From: Ruminococcus sp.
Lineage (GTDB): Bacteria; Bacillota; Clostridia; Oscillospirales; Ruminococcaceae
Assembly (NCBI GenBank): GCA_017516465.1
Contig: JAFXCR010000011.1
Span: 2,553 to 66,552 of the forward strand
Length of the DNA: 64,000 nt
Direction: 5' to 3'
In this document: one piece after another, positions 33,323 through 45,566 of the stretch
Layout of the letters: every line of letters begins with the position of its first letter
How positions within the stretch are numbered: position 1 is the first letter of the stretch
Made by a program: the position numbers and the translations under genes
The notes under the pieces: generated by a model
Told to the model about the DNA's origin: nothing
The model's database searches: none
Seen by the model: only the letters and a program-made list of their open reading frames with translations

Positions 33323-35107
33323 TTATATAATTAAAAACATAAATCCGGTATATGGCGGAATATCCATTGTCAGAAGTCCGTTACCATATCTGAAAGAAGT
33401 TTTTCCGTCCGGAGTTCTTCCGCTGTAAAGCTCGGAATCCGAATCGAGCAGAAGTTTGATTTCCGATATACTGCCGATTTTCAGAGAGTATTCCGGCTGA
33501 TACCAGTCAGAAAGATTAAGTACTGTCAGGATGTCGCCGGTTTTGCTTTTCCTTATGAAAGCATAAATGCATTTTGTCGGAGAATTACAATCTGCCCAGA
33601 TAAAATTATCAGGTTCATAATCGAGGTGCAGAGCCTCATATTCAAGATAAATTCTGTTCAGAGCACAGATGTACCTGTAAAACGAATCATGAACAGGATA
33701 TTTCAGCATATCCCAGTCCTGCTGACGTTTTTCATCCCATTCACGCAGCTGTGCAAATTCATTTCCCATAAAATTGAGTTTTTTCCCTGGATGAGCTATC
33801 ATATACATATATAACCCCCTTGCCTGCGGAAATTTCTCATTGTACTGCCCGTTCATTTTCTGAGTTATTGAAGCTTTTCCATGAACTACCTCATCGTGAG
33901 AAAGCGGCATTATATATCGTTCCTTGTGGAAGTAGAGCATTGAAAAGGTGAGTTTGTGATATATTCCACTGCGGAAAATCGGAGAACTGCGGAAGAAATC
34001 AAGGGTATCGTGCATCCAGCCGAGATCCCATTTGTAGTCGAAGCCAAGACCTCCTTCTGACACAGGAGAGGTTACTCCGGAATAAGCAGAGGAATCCTCA
34101 GCCATAAGTATTGCAGACGGATGACGTGCTTTTAATCCTGTATTCATTGTTTTCAGGAAATCTATTGCACATTTGTTTTCACCACGTTTTTCATCGCCGT
34201 TCCAGTAGATCAGATTACGCACGGCGTCCATTCTCAGACCGTCAAAGTGAAATATCGTAAGCCAGTAATCAGCGGCTGACTGCAAAAATGAGCGTACTTC
34301 ACCTCTCGAATGCATGAAATTCCGGCTGCCCCATTCATTATAGCCTACATCGTTGTTTGGATATTCATATAGACATGTTCCGTCATATTTTGTCAGACCA
34401 TAATCATCAACGGCAAAGTGTACAGGGATGAAATCCAGAATCACGCCGATTCCGTTCTGATGGCACTTATCAACGAGTTCCATGAGCTGAGCCGGAGTGC
34501 CATAGCGTGATGTCGGTGCAAAAAAACCTGTGCTCTGATATCCCCATGATTCATCGCAGGGGTGCTCATTCAGCGGCATTATTTCGATGAAGTTATAACC
34601 GGATTCTTTGACATAGGGGATAAGAAGTTCAGCAAGCTGTGTGTAATCCAGCCATTTTTCAGGATCGCTGATGTCTCTTTTCCATGAACCGGGATGAATC
34701 TCATAGATGTTCATAGGTTTGCTTATGCAGTCAGTACGGGTAGTCATCCATTCATTATCATTGAAACGGTAAGCGTCTGTTCTGCGAATAATGGAGCAAG
34801 TTCCGGGACGAAGTTCCATACCAAAGCCGTAAGGATCGCAGTGATCGGTGAAACTGCCGTTTTTGTCGTAGATTCTGTATTTGTAGCGCATACCTTCAAG
34901 TGCTTCCGGAACGACAGCTTCATAGAAATTTCCGTCAGAGATCTTATTCATCGGAATTTCCTTCCAGCCGCTGAAATCACCTGTTACAGAGATTTTGGAA
35001 GCATCCGGCGCAAAGGTGCGGAAAACTGTGCCTTCATCCGACAGATGTGCCCCGAAATATTCGTATGCATTGAAGATTTTTCCCTGATAGAAGTTTTGTA
35101 TATTCAT
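33323..35107 (-). CDS. glgB: 1,4-alpha-glucan branching enzyme, second stand-alone copy (GH13_9)
   Basis: SWGYQ, DGLRMDAV, AEDSS, LSHDEVVHGK, HPGKKLNFMG. Confidence 0.9.
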   Translation of the reverse strand: MNIQNFYQGKIFNAYEYFGAHLSDEGTVFRTFAPDASKISVTGDFSGWKEIPMNKISDGNFYEAVVPEALEGMRYKYRIYDKNGSFTDHCDPYGFGMELRPGTCSIIRRTDAYRFNDNEWMTTRTDCISKPMNIYEIHPGSWKRDISDPEKWLDYTQLAELLIPYVKESGYNFIEIMPLNEHPCDESWGYQSTGFFAPTSRYGTPAQLMELVDKCHQNGIGVILDFIPVHFAVDDYGLTKYDGTCLYEYPNNDVGYNEWGSRNFMHSRGEVRSFLQSAADYWLTIFHFDGLRMDAVRNLIYWNGDEKRGENKCAIDFLKTMNTGLKARHPSAILMAEDSSAYSGVTSPVSEGGLGFDYKWDLGWMHDTLDFFRSSPIFRSGIYHKLTFSMLYFHKERYIMPLSHDEVVHGKASITQKMNGQYNEKFPQARGLYMYMIAHPGKKLNFMGNEFAQLREWDEKRQQDWDMLKYPVHDSFYRYICALNRIYLEYEALHLDYEPDNFIWADCNSPTKCIYAFIRKSKTGDILTVLNLSDWYQPEYSLKIGSISEIKLLLDSDSELYSGRTPDGKTSFRYGNGLLTMDIPPYTGFMFLII

Positions 35108-37067: not shown

Positions 37068-38303
37068 ATGTATACGGATATAGCTGTGATAGGCGGAGGA
37101 GCCTCTGGTCTTGCCGCAGCCATAGGAGCGAAATCAGAGAATCCGGAATTATATGTAACTGTTTTCGAAAAGCTCGACAGAGTAGGAAAAAAGTTGTTGT
37201 CTACCGGAAATGGAAAATGTAATCTCAGCAGCAGAAACCTCGTTCCTGAGCATTATCATGGTACAGTAAGAAATCTCATGGAAATTATACAGAATACTCC
37301 GTCGGCAGATGAGTTTTTCATGACAATGGGAGTTCCTGTTGTTGCTGACGAACAGGGAAGGATGTATCCACGAAGCGGAAGTGCAGCGGCTGTTCTGAGA
37401 TCACTGAGAATGAGGACTTCGGAGCTTGGAATTGCTGAGGAATGCAGTTTTGAACTGGCTGAGATACGCAGAAGCAAACGAGGATTTATTATTATTTCAA
37501 AATCTGGAATCACTGCGGAATGCCGCTGTATTATTGTTGCTGCCGGAGGATATGCAGCCCCGAAGCTTGGTACAGACGGTGCTGTAATGCGGATATTCCG
37601 TGATATGGGATATAAGACAGCAAAGATATGTCCGGCAGTTGCTCCGCTGAAGGCTTCTCCTGATAAGCTGAAAGGACTTAAAGGAATCCGTGTTAAGGGG
37701 GCAGTTTCAGCTGTTTCCGGAGGAAAAATCCTGAAAACAGAGCAGGGAGAGATACAATTCACAGAGAGTGCATTGTCGGGTATATGCGTATTCAATCTTG
37801 CACGATTTTTCAATGAATACGAAGGCAGACTTGCTCTTCGGATCGACCTTGCAGCTGATATTGAAAAAGCAGAGCTTATTGACTACCTTCAACGTGTAAG
37901 TACGCAAAGAGCCGTATATTCGCTGGAGGAGCTTCTTACCGGATGCTTCCCGAAAAATCTTGCAGTCTACCTTGTGAAGAATACATTTAACTGTCCTCTT
38001 ACAGAGAAAATTTCCACGCTCAGAAAAAGAGATATCATTGCACTTGCAGACAGGATAAAGTCGCTGGAATTTGAGATTTCCGGCTGCTCGTCATGGAATA
38101 ACGCACAGGTGACAGCCGGAGGTATTCACGGAAGCTGCGTTGACAATGAGCTTCAATCCGTCCGTGACAGCGGAATATATTTCTGTGGAGAGATACTTGA
38201 TGCAGACGGAGACTGCGGCGGATATAATCTTCAGTGGGCATGGTCGTCGGGATTGTGGGCAGGAAGTAATTGTGCACGTTCTCTGAAAGGAGCAAAACGA
38301 TGA
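37068..38303 (+). CDS. HI0933/YhiN-family flavoprotein
   Basis: GGGASG, GKKLLSTGNGKCN, VTAGG, GEILD..GDCGGYNLQWAWSSG. Confidence 0.9.
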   Translation: MYTDIAVIGGGASGLAAAIGAKSENPELYVTVFEKLDRVGKKLLSTGNGKCNLSSRNLVPEHYHGTVRNLMEIIQNTPSADEFFMTMGVPVVADEQGRMYPRSGSAAAVLRSLRMRTSELGIAEECSFELAEIRRSKRGFIIISKSGITAECRCIIVAAGGYAAPKLGTDGAVMRIFRDMGYKTAKICPAVAPLKASPDKLKGLKGIRVKGAVSAVSGGKILKTEQGEIQFTESALSGICVFNLARFFNEYEGRLALRIDLAADIEKAELIDYLQRVSTQRAVYSLEELLTGCFPKNLAVYLVKNTFNCPLTEKISTLRKRDIIALADRIKSLEFEISGCSSWNNAQVTAGGIHGSCVDNELQSVRDSGIYFCGEILDADGDCGGYNLQWAWSSGLWAGSNCARSLKGAKR

Positions 38304-39889
38304 TAAGAGTCGGAAATATAAAGGTTCCTCTTGATTTTGATTTCAATGATCTTGAGGGATTCTGTTCCCGAAAGTTCGGAATATACGGGAATAATCTGAT
38401 AAAAGTGCGGCTTGCGAAAAAGTCGGTAGATGCACGAAAAAAATCGGATGTGCATTTTATCATTTCTCTTGATATTGAGGCACAGGAAGAAAAAAGACTT
38501 CAGAAATCGCTGAAAAACGCAGTTCTTGTAAATGAATTCCATTATAAGATCGATCATGTTCCGCCAGTGAGTACACGTCCGGTGATTGTAGGTTTCGGAC
38601 CGGCAGGAATGTATGCTGCCCTTGTTCTTGCTATGGCCGGAGCACGTCCTGTCGTGCTGGAGCGTGGTGCGGATGTTGATTCACGGGTGAAAGCTGTTGA
38701 AGAATTCCGTACAACAGGCAGACTTGATACAGAATGTAATATTCAGTTCGGCGAAGGCGGTGCCGGAACTTTCTCTGACGGAAAGCTTACAACAGGCATC
38801 AAGGATAAGCGCATAGGCTGGATAATGGAACGTCTTGTGGAATTCGGTGCACCTGATGAAATTTTGTATCTTGCAAAGCCTCATATCGGCACGGATAAGC
38901 TTCGTGATGTAGTAAAGAAACTGAGGGAGCGTGTTATTTCTCTTGGCGGCGAGGTGATATTCGGAGCGAGATTCTGCGGATATAAAGCGGAAAACGGCTG
39001 TATTTCGTCTGTTTCCTATGAAAAGGAAGGACGTCTTCATACAATTGAAGCAGCTGATCTTATTCTTGCCTCAGGTCATAGTGCAAGGGATGTCTTTGAA
39101 CTTCTTTACGATAATAAAGTTAGTCTCTCGCAGAAGAATTTTGCAGTAGGAGTAAGAATCGAACATAAAAAGGAATTAATTGACAAGGCGATGTACGGAG
39201 ATTTTGCCGGACATCCGGCACTGAAAGCCGCTGATTATAAGCTTGCGGTACATCTTCCTAACGGACGCACATTGTATACATTTTGTATGTGTCCCGGCGG
39301 CGAGGTTGTAGCCGCATCTTCGGAGGAAAAAAGTCTTGCGGTCAACGGAATGAGCTGTTTTGCCCGTAACGCTGAGAATTCCAACAGTGCACTGCTTGTC
39401 AATGTTGATACAGGTGATTATGGAAGTGATCATCCGCTTGCTGGAATGTATTTCCAGCGTGAGCTTGAGGAAAAAGCATTTATTGCCGGAGGTTCGGATT
39501 ATTGTGCTCCTGTGATTACGGTAGGAGAATTTCTCGGAAATACTGCCGGAGAAGATGTTGTTCCGTCGTATCGTCCGGGAGTGAAAAAAGTTCATCCGTC
39601 GGAGTATCTTCCGGATTTTGTGTGTGAGTCACTGAAACTCGGAATACCGGAAATGGGCAGAAAAATAAAGGGATTTGATGCTTCCGGAGCAGTGCTTACA
39701 GGAATTGAAAGCCGCAGCAGTTCTCCCGTGCGGATAAACAGGGGAGAGGATATGCAGTCAATTTCGCTGAAAGGACTGTACCCTTGCGGTGAAGGCGCTG
39801 GATATGCAGGCGGTATAGTTTCGGCAGCGGCTGACGGAATGAAATGCGCAGAGGCAGTTATTGACAGGATAAACGGGAAAATGTTCTGA
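38300..39889 (+). CDS. FAD-dependent oxidoreductase
   Basis: GFGPAG, QFGEGGAGTFSDGKL, TFCMCPGG, GEGAGYAGGIVSAAADG. Confidence 0.88.
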   Translation: MIRVGNIKVPLDFDFNDLEGFCSRKFGIYGNNLIKVRLAKKSVDARKKSDVHFIISLDIEAQEEKRLQKSLKNAVLVNEFHYKIDHVPPVSTRPVIVGFGPAGMYAALVLAMAGARPVVLERGADVDSRVKAVEEFRTTGRLDTECNIQFGEGGAGTFSDGKLTTGIKDKRIGWIMERLVEFGAPDEILYLAKPHIGTDKLRDVVKKLRERVISLGGEVIFGARFCGYKAENGCISSVSYEKEGRLHTIEAADLILASGHSARDVFELLYDNKVSLSQKNFAVGVRIEHKKELIDKAMYGDFAGHPALKAADYKLAVHLPNGRTLYTFCMCPGGEVVAASSEEKSLAVNGMSCFARNAENSNSALLVNVDTGDYGSDHPLAGMYFQRELEEKAFIAGGSDYCAPVITVGEFLGNTAGEDVVPSYRPGVKKVHPSEYLPDFVCESLKLGIPEMGRKIKGFDASGAVLTGIESRSSSPVRINRGEDMQSISLKGLYPCGEGAGYAGGIVSAAADGMKCAEAVIDRINGKMF

Positions 39890-39915
39890 TAGATCAGGCA
39901 ATATCGGAGGTAATT

Positions 39916-40188
39916 ATGAAAATTAATATTATCGGCGGAGAAATGGAACGCAGCGAGATAGATGAGTATATAAAGTATGCCGGCAAGAAGCATCCCGGAC
40001 GGCAGATAAGACAAATTGATATAATCATCGACGGTGAATATGTTGATCTGAAATTCTATTTCGGAGATCTCGATTTTCAGCATGCTTACAGATCGGCGGA
40101 CTATCTTGTCAACAGCATGGAGAAGCTCAACGACGCAAAGCAGTCTGAATTTTCCCAGAAGGAACGACACGGAATACAGGAGAAGTAA
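39916..40188 (+). CDS. Small stand-alone protein resembling the NrdD C-terminal glycyl-radical domain, Gly replaced by Asp
   Basis: GGAGG RBS; C-terminal half FQHAYRSADYLVNSMEKLNDAK aligns without gaps to recalled motif F.RIRRITGYLVG..D..N.AK. Confidence 0.7.
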   Translation: MKINIIGGEMERSEIDEYIKYAGKKHPGRQIRQIDIIIDGEYVDLKFYFGDLDFQHAYRSADYLVNSMEKLNDAKQSEFSQKERHGIQEK

Positions 40189-40190
40189 AA

Positions 40191-41051
40191 ATGATTCTTA
40201 CAAATATAGGAACGATAAAGGAAATACTTTCACGTCATGGTTTCAGTTTTTCAAAGGGACTCGGACAGAATTTTATCACAAATCCCGATATATGTCCAAG
40301 AATAGCTGAAAACGGAAATGCACGGGAAGGATTCGGAGTTATAGAAATCGGTACTGGCATCGGAGTTCTGACTGCTGAGCTTGCAAGACGTGCAGATAAG
40401 GTGTGTGCAGTTGAGATCGACAGCAGACTTCTTCCGATACTGGATGAAACGCTTGCGGATTTCAACAATATAAGGATATTCAATGAGGATGTAATGAAAT
40501 GCGATCTTCATAAGATAATACAGGAGGAATTTACGGGTCTGAAGGCGGCTGTATGTGCCAATCTTCCTTATTATATTACATCGCCGGTTCTTATGCTTCT
40601 GCTTGAAAGCCGTCTGCCTGTTGAATCAATTACTGTTATGGTGCAGAAGGAAGCAGCACAGCGGCTTTGTGCCAGAGTTGGCAGCAGAGAATCAGGGGCA
40701 ATTACTGTTGCCGTAAATTACTATGGTACTGCAAAGCAGCTTTTCGGTGTTTCAAGAGGAAGTTTCATGCCTTCCCCGAATGTCGATTCTGCTGTTATAA
40801 AGATCGAGCCACGCAGTATGCCGCTTCTTGACGAAGAAGATGAGAAGTTTTTCTTCAGGGTTGTCAAGAGTGGGTTTTCCCAGCGGAGAAAGACGGCAGC
40901 AAATGCACTGTCGTCAATGATGGGGATACCGAAGGAAAAAATATATGAAGCTCTCAGGGAACTTAATCTAAGCGAAACTGCCCGACTTGAGGGACTTGAA
41001 ATGGAACAGCTTATAGAATTTTCAAAAATTCTGAAAAAATCACTGAATTGA
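40191..41051 (+). CDS. rsmA: 16S rRNA adenine dimethyltransferase
   Basis: KGLGQNF, EIGTGIG, ANLPYYITSP, MVQKE, PSPNVDSAV. Confidence 0.96.
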   Translation: MILTNIGTIKEILSRHGFSFSKGLGQNFITNPDICPRIAENGNAREGFGVIEIGTGIGVLTAELARRADKVCAVEIDSRLLPILDETLADFNNIRIFNEDVMKCDLHKIIQEEFTGLKAAVCANLPYYITSPVLMLLLESRLPVESITVMVQKEAAQRLCARVGSRESGAITVAVNYYGTAKQLFGVSRGSFMPSPNVDSAVIKIEPRSMPLLDEEDEKFFFRVVKSGFSQRRKTAANALSSMMGIPKEKIYEALRELNLSETARLEGLEMEQLIEFSKILKKSLN

Positions 41052-41126: not shown

Positions 41127-43382
41127 GTGGTCTGGATGTTTAAAAAGAATAATCTGAAAAAACTCACAGAAAGCCCGACAGCTGCAAAAGCAGGGGCTTT
41201 TCTTCTTTGTCTGGGGGCAGGTGTGCTCCTTTCGGGAACTGATATCGCAGGAGCTGCAATATTTGCCGATGTTTCTCTTGCCGGCGGACTGAATCTTCCG
41301 TATTCTGCTGCCGTATTTACAGGAAGTCTTGTGAGAAGTGTTATTCAGGGAACTGTCGGACATAATATCGTAAAGATCACTGCTGTGCTTATCGTTGTAA
41401 TTTTCAAGATGTTCACCGAGCCGGTAAATGATCCAAAGGTCAATGGTATATCCACATTCTGTACTGTATTTGCGTCAGGTGCCGCAATATCTGCTGTAAT
41501 GGGGAAGCTTATTTACAGAATGGTGTATTATCTGCTTTACGCTGCTCTTGCCGGATATACAGCCTATTCGGTGTGCCTTATAATTTCAGGATTCAGAAAT
41601 AAGCGGGCGGCCGATTTTTCTTCTGTTTCCGGATGTGCCTATGCGGTAGTATATACATTGCTCATTACAACACTTTGTTATGTTGATATGCCTCTCATTA
41701 ATGCTGGAATTGTTATAGGTTCTGCGGTAACTCTTGCAGGAGCGTATTTTTACCGTTATACAGGTGGAGTACTGTGCGGAGCTTTGACAACCTGCGGAGC
41801 TTTCCTTTCTTCATCGTCATCCGGAATGACAGTTGTTCTTCTTCCGGCAGCTGGACTTCTTACTGGATATCTTTACCGGCAGAAAATCAATATCGCAGCT
41901 GGATTTTTCACTGGACTCAATTTCATGCTGATGATACTGGCGGGTGTGAATCCTGAGAATATGAATAATATGTTCAATATTATCTGCGGAACAGCTCTGT
42001 TCCGGTTTTGTGCACCATTTTATTCGGATAAATGGATAATCACCGGTGATGGTTCAGCAGCGGCATTGCCGACGATTCTTGGAACAAGGATGGGATTTCT
42101 GTCTGATTCAATAGGGAGTCTCAGGATGGAATCAGAGAAAATAGCCGGAATTATAGCTGAAAACACGCGAAACAAGGAAGAACTTCCCGATAGCTCGAAT
42201 ACTGTATGCAGCCGATGCTTCAGACGTCTCAATTGTTGGAAAAGTGATTATGACAATACTGTAAGAGGATTTCGGCGTCTGTCGAAGATGAGTGAATTCT
42301 CCAAGGAAGCCTTTCCGTATGAGCTTGATGATTGTCTCCATAAAGGAGAACTCAGAGAAGCATTCGAGAAAAGAGCAAGAGAAAGGGTAACAGCAAGGCT
42401 TCTGGAAATGAGGTTTTCAGAAAGCAGGAGGCTTCTTTCGGAGCAGATAAAGATAATTGAGGAGATTGTAGAATCGGTTGGTGAACGTATGGATGTACGG
42501 TATTCTGAGCCGATAAGCCGGAGTATAAGAGAAAAGCTTGTAAAGTACGGAATGAAGCCTGACAGCGTGATTGCATATTATAATTCACGGAACAGACTTC
42601 TGGCAGAGATATATTTCAGTTATGCTGATGCACCAGAAGATAGCAGGAGAATATGCGATCTTGTTTCCGATGAACTCAGGATTCCGCTTGACAGTGCCGG
42701 AGTTGTCAGATCAGGACGTGAGGTGAGAATACGGCTTTTTGAGAAACCAGAGTATTCCATTGAGGTTTACGGTGCTTCTATATGTGCTGATAATTCGAAG
42801 GAAAACGGAGATACATCCATGATATTCAGCGATGGTACAGGGGTAAGCTATGTCATACTGTCTGACGGTATGGGATGTGGCAAAAAAGCAGCTGTTGAAT
42901 CTCGCATGGTAGTGAGAATGTTTCGTCGTCTTATTAGCAGTGGAGTGAAATATACATCTGCAATAAAGCTTATAAATTCTATAATGTTGACGAAATCACG
43001 GGATGAAGCATTTGCAACACTTGACGCTGTAAGAATCGACCTTGACAGCTGTGGATTGACTGTTATAAAATCAGGAGCAACAGCTACACTTATCCGTCAT
43101 CGTGGAAGTGTTATGAAGATAACCTCACCGACTTTTCCGATCGGGATATATGAGCAGTCTGAGACCTTTTCAAAGGACTATGATTTCGAGGACGGAGATA
43201 TTATAATAATGTTTTCTGACGGTATCAGTGAAAATGCTTACAGCTTCATCAAGGAACTGCTGCTTGGCGGAGGGGATCTGAAAAGTATTGTTGATGAAAT
43301 TTGTGTAAAATCAGAGGTGTTTAATCCAGCGGTGCGTAGTGATGATGTAACAGTTATCGGAATCCGTGTAATGCGTTCATGA
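41127..43382 (+). CDS. spoIIE: Stage II sporulation protein E (PP2C phosphatase)
   Basis: Multi-TM N-terminus, Cys motif C..C...C, PP2C motifs GD, LSDGMG, SDGI, DDVTV. Confidence 0.88.
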   Translation: MVWMFKKNNLKKLTESPTAAKAGAFLLCLGAGVLLSGTDIAGAAIFADVSLAGGLNLPYSAAVFTGSLVRSVIQGTVGHNIVKITAVLIVVIFKMFTEPVNDPKVNGISTFCTVFASGAAISAVMGKLIYRMVYYLLYAALAGYTAYSVCLIISGFRNKRAADFSSVSGCAYAVVYTLLITTLCYVDMPLINAGIVIGSAVTLAGAYFYRYTGGVLCGALTTCGAFLSSSSSGMTVVLLPAAGLLTGYLYRQKINIAAGFFTGLNFMLMILAGVNPENMNNMFNIICGTALFRFCAPFYSDKWIITGDGSAAALPTILGTRMGFLSDSIGSLRMESEKIAGIIAENTRNKEELPDSSNTVCSRCFRRLNCWKSDYDNTVRGFRRLSKMSEFSKEAFPYELDDCLHKGELREAFEKRARERVTARLLEMRFSESRRLLSEQIKIIEEIVESVGERMDVRYSEPISRSIREKLVKYGMKPDSVIAYYNSRNRLLAEIYFSYADAPEDSRRICDLVSDELRIPLDSAGVVRSGREVRIRLFEKPEYSIEVYGASICADNSKENGDTSMIFSDGTGVSYVILSDGMGCGKKAAVESRMVVRMFRRLISSGVKYTSAIKLINSIMLTKSRDEAFATLDAVRIDLDSCGLTVIKSGATATLIRHRGSVMKITSPTFPIGIYEQSETFSKDYDFEDGDIIIMFSDGISENAYSFIKELLLGGGDLKSIVDEICVKSEVFNPAVRSDDVTVIGIRVMRS

Positions 43383-43580: not shown

Positions 43581-45566
43581 ATGTCAGTTAACAAAAAAAA
43601 TAACCAGAATGATTTTCCGCTGTATCTGTTTTATCAGGGGAAAAATTATGAAGCTTATAAATTTTTCGGAGTACATTCTAAGAAAAAAGGAAGAGGACAA
43701 ACATTCAACTTTAGAGTTTGGGCTCCTAATGCAAAGAGAGTATCTGTTGTAGGTGATTTTAATGAATGGGATCGTACGAAGAATCCCATGCAGCTTATAG
43801 CTGACGGAGTGTGGGAGACTGATATATCCGGACTAAAACAGTTTGATGCTTATAAATACAGCATTGAAACCGGAGACGGCAGAACTATATTAAAATCTGA
43901 TCCATACGGTACTCATTTTGAAACACGTCCCGGAACAGCTTCAAAGATCTATGAAAGTACCTATGAATGGTCAGACCAGAAATGGTTTGAAGCTAAGAAA
44001 AGTAAGATCGTATATAAAAGTCCGGTAAATGTCTACGAGGTTCACCTTGGTTCATGGAAAAAAGAAGAAAACCGTGAGTTTATCGACTACATCACATTTG
44101 CCCAAAATATTATTCCGTATCTCAGGAAGATGTCTTATACTCATGTTGAATTCATGCCGCTTACAGAGTATCCCTTTGACGGCTCGTGGGGATATCAGGT
44201 GACAGGATATTTTGCACCCACTTCACGCTATGGAACACCGGACGATTTCAGGAAAATGGTAGATATGTTCCATGAAGCCGGAATAGGTGTGATACTGGAT
44301 TGGGTACCGGCACACTTCCCGAAAGACGAAGCTGGACTATATGAGTTTGACGGCACCTGTTGTTATGAATATACCGATGAGAGAAAAAGAGAGCATAAGT
44401 CGTGGGGAACGAGAGTTTTCGACTATGGCAAGGCAGAGGTATGCTCATTCCTTATCTCGAGTGCAAATTACTGGTTTGATGAATTTCATATAGACGGTCT
44501 GCGAGTTGATGCAGTGGCATCTATGCTTTATCTTGATTATGACAGACGTGACGGTGAATGGTGTGCCAACGTATATGGTGGAAATGAGAATCTTGAGGCT
44601 GTTGAGTTTTTCAAGCGTCTGAACGAAGCTGTTTTCTCCAAGCATCCTGACGCTCTCATGATTGCAGAGGAATCCACAGCATGGCCTCTTGTTACAAAAC
44701 CAACAGATATAGGTGGTCTTGGTTTCAATTTCAAGTGGAACATGGGGTGGATGAACGATATGCTCAGCTATATGTCGCTTGATCCGATATATCGCTCATT
44801 CAATCACGATAAGCTTACATTTTCATTCTTCTATGCTTTTTCTGAGAATTATATGCTCCCAATTTCTCACGATGAGGTGGTTTACGGAAAATGCTCCATG
44901 ATAAACAAGATGCCCGGAGAGTATGAACAGAAATTTGCATCATACCGTGCTTTTCTTGCATATATGATGGCACATCCCGGAAAGAAGCTTCTCTTTATGG
45001 GGCAGGAATTTGCTCAGATGAATGAATGGAATTACCAGACTCAGCTTGACTGGAATCTTATGGAATTTGATTCACATAAAAATATGCTGAAATTCTCTGA
45101 AAAGCTTAATAAATTCTATGCTGAAAATTCTCCCATGTGGCAGAATGATGATTCATGGGGCGGCTTCAGCTGGATTTCAAATGACGACTACAAGCAGAGC
45201 GTTATTTCTTTCAGACGTATAGATGACAACGGTGATGAGATTATTGCAGTATGCAATTTTGTTCCCGTTGAGCGTAAGGATTATAGGATAGGTGTGCCGT
45301 ATAAGGGCAGATACAAGCTTGTGTTCAATACTGATGCCACAGAGTTCGGTGGATCAGGAATATCCGAGAAATCCTTTAAAACCGAGAACGAAGGAATGCA
45401 CGGTCATGACCAAAGCATTTCAATGACGTTAGCTCCGCTTTCAGTGGTGTATATCAAATATGTGCCAGTGAAAAAGAGAATGCCAAAAACAGACGCAGTG
45501 TCGGAGACTCCGGAAAAACCGAAGAGAACAAGGAAAAAGACTGCGGAAAAGTCATCCGATAAATAA
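43581..45566 (+). CDS. glgB: 1,4-alpha-glucan branching enzyme
   Basis: SWGYQVTGYFAPTSRYG, DGLRVDAV, AEES, SHDEVV; first gene of the glg operon. Confidence 0.95.
   Translation: MSVNKKNNQNDFPLYLFYQGKNYEAYKFFGVHSKKKGRGQTFNFRVWAPNAKRVSVVGDFNEWDRTKNPMQLIADGVWETDISGLKQFDAYKYSIETGDGRTILKSDPYGTHFETRPGTASKIYESTYEWSDQKWFEAKKSKIVYKSPVNVYEVHLGSWKKEENREFIDYITFAQNIIPYLRKMSYTHVEFMPLTEYPFDGSWGYQVTGYFAPTSRYGTPDDFRKMVDMFHEAGIGVILDWVPAHFPKDEAGLYEFDGTCCYEYTDERKREHKSWGTRVFDYGKAEVCSFLISSANYWFDEFHIDGLRVDAVASMLYLDYDRRDGEWCANVYGGNENLEAVEFFKRLNEAVFSKHPDALMIAEESTAWPLVTKPTDIGGLGFNFKWNMGWMNDMLSYMSLDPIYRSFNHDKLTFSFFYAFSENYMLPISHDEVVYGKCSMINKMPGEYEQKFASYRAFLAYMMAHPGKKLLFMGQEFAQMNEWNYQTQLDWNLMEFDSHKNMLKFSEKLNKFYAENSPMWQNDDSWGGFSWISNDDYKQSVISFRRIDDNGDEIIAVCNFVPVERKDYRIGVPYKGRYKLVFNTDATEFGGSGISEKSFKTENEGMHGHDQSISMTLAPLSVVYIKYVPVKKRMPKTDAVSETPEKPKRTRKKTAEKSSDK

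Follow-up and report, generated by a model that had tools for sequence, protein, structure and literature searches.

Glycyl-radical enzymes have a central place in anaerobic metabolism, and oxygen destroys them at the glycine that carries the radical. Small free-standing copies of the radical-bearing C-terminal piece are represented by GrcA/YfiD of E. coli and by Y06I of phage T4, spare parts of pyruvate formate-lyase (PFL) that belong to PF01228/IPR011140, and in this respect they are like the protein described here. PFL is also the one glycyl-radical enzyme for which such repair is established. A review of June 2026 names the formate lyases as the only glycyl-radical enzymes with known spare-part proteins (PMC13450708), and a paper from 2021 speculates on further spare-part proteins (PMC8683613). 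Our own literature search returned no description of spare parts for NrdD (class III ribonucleotide reductase, RNR), of Gly-less glycyl-radical modules or of a split NrdD; one match to the term 'split' concerned the class II NrdJa+b and was set aside.

The subject of this work is a 90-residue protein encoded in a 64,000-nucleotide stretch of a Ruminococcus genome (the whole stretch is called the window hereafter). The source genome measures 1.99 Mb and is 95% complete. The initial annotation had described the protein as a stand-alone mimic of the NrdD C-terminus in which the radical glycine is replaced by aspartate, and had proposed that it regulates a glycyl-radical enzyme or the activase of one, or acts on them as a radical-dead decoy, or that the domain has been reused in RNA or ribosome metabolism. 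We refer to it as the Asp protein, to its orthologues as the Asp type, and to the relatives that retain the glycine as the Gly type.

The gene and its surroundings

The open reading frame, read directly from the sequence, starts with an ATG at 39916 and runs for 90 codons to a TAA. Only 2 nt separate this stop from the ATG of rsmA at 40191, and two flavoprotein genes lie upstream in what appears to be the same operon. The features are as follows, all on the forward strand:

37068..38303, + strand: HI0933-like / aminoacetone-oxidase-family flavoprotein, first gene of the apparent operon, context (Pfam PF03486; NCBIfam TIGR00275, 303 bits)
38270..39889, + strand: FAD-dependent protein PF21688, upstream in the apparent same operon, context (Pfam, E 4e-72)
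39906..39910, + strand: ribosome-binding site GGAGG, 5 nt ahead of the ATG (sequence)
39916..40188, + strand: gene for the 90-residue Asp-type NrdD-tail protein, stop included (ORF listing and sequence)
39916..40071, + strand: codons 1-52, family-specific beta-alpha-beta-beta N-domain (AlphaFold2)
40072..40185, + strand: codons 53-90, tail homologous to the glycyl-radical loop and C-terminal segment of NrdD (BLASTP to the Gly paralogue; hhalign of an Asp-only profile against NrdD C-termini)
40099..40101, + strand: codon 62, GAC, Asp at the radical-glycine position (sequence)
40191..41051, + strand: rsmA, 16S rRNA adenine dimethyltransferase, context (Pfam RrnaAD, E 4e-57)

Reading frame, ribosome-binding site, length, GAC codon and position between two flavoproteins and rsmA were all found as the initial annotation had given them, the former from the sequence and the neighbours from Pfam. 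The PF21688 gene is syntenic in most loci of the genus. Downstream of rsmA lies spoIIE (41127-43382), and the rsmA-spoIIE order is kept in other genera too. Two divergent glycogen-branching-enzyme-like genes stand on either side of the region (33323-35107 on the minus strand and 43581-45566 on the plus strand).

What the gene encodes is a small cytoplasmic protein in two parts, residues 1-52 and residues 53-90. Used as a single query it gave no meaningful match in Pfam, NCBIfam or the PDB sequences.

A tail homologous to NrdD behind a separate domain

BLASTP aligned the Asp protein with an 87-residue paralogue from the same genome over 87 residues, with no gap, at 38% identity and with an E-value of 2e-24, placing Asp62 opposite the radical glycine of the paralogue, a match well outside what chance would give. 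The NrdD-tail pattern that the initial annotation had written down is therefore real. To this we can add a profile built from 62 Asp-type sequences, Gly paralogues left out, which matched 15 NrdD C-termini in the same register over 38 gapless columns (hhalign probability 84%, E 7e-6) and full-length NrdD with a probability of 63% (E 7e-5); the link to NrdD is thus independent of the Gly paralogue. A combined profile matches the solved NrdD of Prevotella copri (8p23_A) at residues 707-738. Profile similarity to the NrdD C-terminus, on which the initial annotation had staked its reading, is hence present by BLASTP as well as by hhalign.

Family assignments by curated models gave no such signal. 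None of the 62 Asp-type members matched Pfam NRDD (PF13597), and the window protein itself matched neither PF13597 nor the NCBIfam NrdD models, its score being under the curated cut-off. A search of the PDB sequences with the Asp-only HMM did not reach NrdD, and the window protein had no match to PF01228 Gly_radical at E-values up to 1. Membership of NrdD fails on size as well, given that 90 residues cannot contain the catalytic alpha/beta barrel.

The resemblance to NrdD is limited to the last ~38 residues, and to that extent the description of the protein as an NrdD-tail mimic stands. In NrdD this stretch comprises the radical-bearing loop within the barrel and a segment passing across the top of the barrel. 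The resemblance does not extend to residues 1-52, which form a separate domain. AlphaFold2 predicts this N-domain with a pLDDT of about 85 (strand 2-6, helix 12-25, strands 31-39 and 42-49), and the model of the Gly paralogue has the same fold. An origin of the N-domain in NrdD or NrdG was not detected by hhalign against full-length alignments of either (probability <2%). Seven of its residues, N4, G7, E14, Y18, K25, G40 and D44, are conserved in the Asp and Gly clades alike. In the tail the pLDDT falls below 55; the tail model is unreliable, and structural mimicry of the NrdD loop is putative. The N-domain occupies the place that the Zn ribbon has in NrdD, whose Zn site, according to one proposal, keeps the radical loop oriented (PMC5704485).

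Within the tail, the two clades have nine conserved positions in common (F54, R59, Y63, L64, V65, N72, K75, E78 and H85), and all of them except F54 are also conserved in the NrdD tails of Ruminococcaceae and P. copri. Another twelve are fixed differently in the Asp clade: P->D53, I->S60, T->A61, G->D62, G->N66, L->M68, R->K70, F->L71, G->A74, R->Q76, E->F79 and R->K82. Beyond these twelve, R58 has become Y or F. Taken together, the conserved and the newly fixed positions mark a functional binding peptide that has been re-tuned and is not decaying. The RIRRITG motif has lost several of its basic residues, through R56->H in most members and R58->Y, and R76 has changed to Q as well; with them, recognition by the activase could be gone.

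Why aspartate? A change from GGY to GAY requires one base only, and aspartate, like glycine and asparagine, readily takes unusual backbone angles. Together, this ease of access and this tolerance of the backbone may explain why aspartate is the sole replacement seen. The NrdD of phage T4 is said to have been crystallised, in work by Logan and colleagues in 1999, as a Gly-to-Ala mutant, which suggests that the radical loop tolerates a side chain at the glycine position. The side chain of an L-residue occupies the position of the pro-S hydrogen of glycine. Since it is the pro-S hydrogen that PFL activase takes, going by a title cited in PMC8683613, Asp62 should be non-activatable by NrdG.

The glycine-bearing paralogue and its family

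The initial annotation had suggested looking in the genome for a glycine-containing paralogue, and the 87-residue protein is one (G000:C26; L002:1495-1755, minus strand), found with the Pfam NRDD search. It matches PF13597 at positions 533-562 of 562 with 31.7 bits, above the 26.2-bit cut-off. Its sequence ends ...FERVRRITGYLVGTLDRFNNGKRAEEKDRVKHSV, with the glycyl-radical motif of NrdD, RRITGYLVG, and the segment FERVRRITGYLVGTLDRFNNGKRAEEKDRVKH at this end is nearly identical to the C-terminus of the NrdD of the same genome.

The paralogue lies between a divergent gene for a Crp/Fnr-family regulator and a rubrerythrin gene (L002:872-2534), an order kept in 11 of 12 loci of the genus. The intergenic region here contains a perfect 16-bp palindrome, TGTTGCAATTGCAACA, and the palindrome (TGTTGCAnnTGCAACA) is conserved in all eight loci that were checked. 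This is an oxygen-stress setting, and the locus looks like an oxygen-stress-regulated operon in which a spare radical module is paired with rubrerythrin. Across 26 genera, antisense shadow ORFs aside, Gly-type genes had no recurrent neighbours.

The Gly-bearing family is large, with at least 7994 clusters at 90% identity. Its members are labelled 'anaerobic ribonucleoside-triphosphate reductase' or 'hypothetical' in the source records, and those of the Asp type 'hypothetical'. IMG/VR has at least 121 viral contigs with full-length Gly-type genes, which encode both the N-domain and the NrdD tail; among the 80 viral loci that were read, 77 have the glycine and none has aspartate. Three family members of 200-236 residues (P0132, P0167 and P0237) carry a long unrelated N-terminal extension ahead of the N-domain and Gly tail. 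By analogy with GrcA, which serves pyruvate formate-lyase, the Gly-bearing free-standing NrdD-tail proteins in all likelihood supply NrdD in trans with a replaceable radical module. The parent family is a spare-part candidate for class III RNR.

Conservation and origin of the Asp clade

Homologues of the 90-residue protein fall into 256 clusters at 90% identity, and aspartate is present in each of the 119 close homologue clusters that have the motif. In a representative library at 50% identity the residue at the radical position is glycine in 103 cases, aspartate in 5 and anything else in none. All 20 species genomes of the genus have aspartate, encoded by GAT in 13 and by GAC in 7. Pairwise comparison of the Asp orthologues gave a pN of 0.157 against a pS of 0.83, with synonymous sites saturated, and constraint was tightest in the tail (pN 0.106, compared with 0.192 in the N-domain). 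Purifying selection on the gene is thus strong.

The 26 Asp rows group together, with support of 100/98, in a maximum-likelihood tree of 144 family members; this clade takes in the Ruminococcus champanellensis type as well as a divergent member from a metagenome. The Asp clade thus has a single origin and is nested in the Gly-bearing family. The Gly-less clade that the initial annotation had asked about does exist, then, with aspartate fixed, monophyly and purifying selection; it is neither unique to one strain nor pseudogene-like. A lone 77-residue sequence of the representative library (P0202) is Gly-type-like and has aspartate together with a degenerate tail (KITDYLVG ... DCVKY). This sequence may represent an independent loss or a copy in decay; on account of its length it was kept out of the tree.

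The Asp type was found in 62 of the 81 sampled genomes of the genus and in 42 of its 46 high-quality genomes, and the Gly type in about 59 genomes of the 81-genome sample; these samples are draws, and absence means not found in the genomes searched. Most genomes of the genus have both small genes. One of them (G062) has three small paralogues, an Asp-type gene by rsmA and two of the Gly type (C40, C36 and C10). A survey of 200 genomes covering 166 genera of the family turned up the Asp type in this genus and in an R. champanellensis-like genome only, so that the clade extends over at least two genera. The latter genome (99% complete) has NrdD and the Asp type, without a Gly-type small protein.

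NrdD, NrdG and tails that work in trans

The genome that carries the window has a full-length NrdD of 772 residues (G000:C46), with NrdG directly after it and scoring above the TIGR02491 cut-off. A search of this 95%-complete genome for PF01228 Gly_radical proteins came back empty, which makes NrdD the sole glycyl-radical enzyme detected in it and NrdG its activase. A PflX-like radical-SAM protein of about 300 residues (G000:C6:87287-88198) shows weak, below-cut-off similarity to NrdG2; no PFL-type enzyme was found in the genome. Across the genus, NrdD is present in all 46 high-quality genomes. The Asp gene is never beside nrdD or nrdG.

Five sister genera (L070-L074) have a split NrdD, in which a large ORF that stops after the Zn ribbon is followed by a tail ORF of 45-60 residues with the canonical RRITGYLVG tail, and then by nrdG. 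This arrangement shows that NrdD tails acting in trans occur naturally. In many genomes of the family, short tail ORFs of this kind were the only ones seen in the profile search. Cryo-EM of the P. copri NrdD found its radical domain dynamic and ordered in one protomer only (PMC11226230), so that a vacant tail socket is plausible even without oxygen damage.

Proposed function and alternative readings

The reading we favour, to which we give a probability of roughly 0.45, is that the Asp protein would be a non-activatable plug or competitor docking on NrdD or on its activase NrdG. The Asp tail would dock where the NrdD tail docks; we propose this site because the deep NrdD-tail invariants are kept and the tail is the part under the tightest constraint. 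Docking might take place on NrdG, or else in an NrdD protomer, at the tail socket, once the protomer's own radical domain has been displaced or cleaved by oxygen. At either site the protein would tune the share of radical-loaded NrdD, and it would be expressed from a housekeeping operon, as against the oxygen-stress locus of the Gly paralogue. A point against such a role is that there is no obvious use for an essential enzyme's constitutive inhibitor. The Asp gene is dispensable, as four high-quality genomes of the genus are without it.

One can go further and suppose that Ruminococcus has two NrdD radical tails acting in trans, an oxygen-stress Gly version that re-arms class III RNR and a constitutive Asp version that is a radical-dead plug or anti-activation factor. 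This combined picture is tentative and, on balance, doubtful. If true, it would describe a glycyl-radical enzyme regulated by a mimic of its own cofactor-bearing loop, the first pseudo-cofactor regulator of any such enzyme, and it would give a natural means of studying how radical domains move into and out of the barrel.

The Asp clade might instead have been recruited to a job unrelated to RNR, for instance in maturation or hibernation of the small ribosomal subunit together with RsmA, in which case the tail would be a binding peptide for a new partner. The small gene is translationally coupled to rsmA, with a 2-nt gap, in each of the 20 loci of the genus that were examined, the twelve clade-specific substitutions and the lost basic residues fit a change of partner, and the top Foldseek matches, weak as they are, are all HPF/YfiA ribosome hibernation factors. 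Nonetheless, we consider such a recruitment unlikely. The synteny with rsmA that the initial annotation had proposed to survey is complete in the genus loci examined and was not found in other genera: the R. champanellensis-type gene follows a MerR/TipAS regulator, the member of another lineage is beside spo0A, and in other genera rsmA has no such gene upstream, a divergent dCMP deaminase gene preceding it. On these gene orders rsmA was rejected as a conserved partner beyond the genus. As to the structural matches, they are not significant (best E 0.049, TM 0.32-0.42; against the PDB, neither the Asp nor the Gly model gave a match below E 0.04), no Pfam S30AE (PF02482) signal was present in 94 members, and the model of the Gly paralogue, which has no link to rsmA, gives the same HPF/YfiA matches, for which reason we rejected them as evidence of a ribosomal role. 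Moreover, the deep NrdD-tail invariants are still fixed. Reuse of the domain in RNA or ribosome metabolism, the second of the roles offered by the initial annotation, has therefore little in its favour.

Another thought is that the Asp protein acts on the Gly paralogue, for example by pairing through the common N-domain to hold or release the spare module. Surface residues of the N-domain are conserved across both clades and most genomes of the genus have both genes, as such pairing would lead one to expect; but the R. champanellensis-like genome manages with NrdD and the Asp type only, and selection is strongest on the tail instead of the N-domain, so that we regard pairing as quite improbable. 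As for a functionless duplicate in decay, its radical site killed by a chance G-to-A mutation, the single-base step from GGY to GAY and the lone P0202, with its aspartate and degenerate positions in a Gly-type-like sequence, are what one would cite for it. Against it stand the ratio of pN to pS at saturated synonymous sites, the retention of aspartate through turnover between GAT and GAC, a frame intact in 62 of 81 genomes and a monophyletic clade spanning at least two genera; the selection data effectively refute it. The probability that remains is left to explanations outside all of these readings.

The Asp clade represents a radical module that was converted once, and stably, to a non-radical form, with a putative docking tail under strong selection. 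If the protein does bind NrdD or NrdG, it would be a natural competitive probe of the exchange of radical domains and of recognition by the activase, and it could also regulate the supply of DNA precursors in important fibre degraders of the rumen and gut.

Comparison with known systems

GrcA offers the nearest precedent for a free-standing radical tail, and the Asp protein departs from it in three ways. Its copied tail is that of NrdD and not that of PFL; it has an ordered beta-alpha-beta-beta N-domain, whereas the N-terminus of GrcA is disordered (PMC13450708); and, having aspartate for the radical glycine, it cannot be a radical cofactor. The likeness to Y06I of phage T4 goes a step further in that the Gly-bearing relatives of the Asp protein are also phage-borne. 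With HPF/YfiA the topology is loosely shared (beta-alpha-beta-beta ... alpha), the match lying partly on a low-confidence helix and coming with no sequence signal.

When set against the C-terminal domain of NrdD (P. copri 8P23, residues 676-739), the Asp protein aligns over its last ~38 residues without gaps to the buried glycine loop and the C-terminal segment, keeping the R, the Y-L-V, the N, the K, the E and the H. The Asp protein has neither the catalytic barrel nor the Zn-ribbon cysteines of NrdD, and it reads Ser-Ala-Asp where NrdD reads Ile-Thr-Gly.

The Gly-bearing tail proteins share the architecture and length of the Asp type, with 36-41% identity, no gaps and a common N-domain fold. 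The Asp type differs from them in the replacement of Gly62 by Asp and in eleven further fixed switches of the tail. It was absent from the viral contigs read and is limited to genomes of the Ruminococcus group, where it sits in the rsmA operon and not in the Crp/Fnr-rubrerythrin locus.

Finally, the mini-ORFs of split NrdD share with the Asp protein the condition of a free NrdD tail, one that in their case needs to work in trans. Unlike the Asp protein they have the canonical glycine, are without the N-domain and sit in the nrd operon: what they encode is the tail of the enzyme itself and no additional copy.
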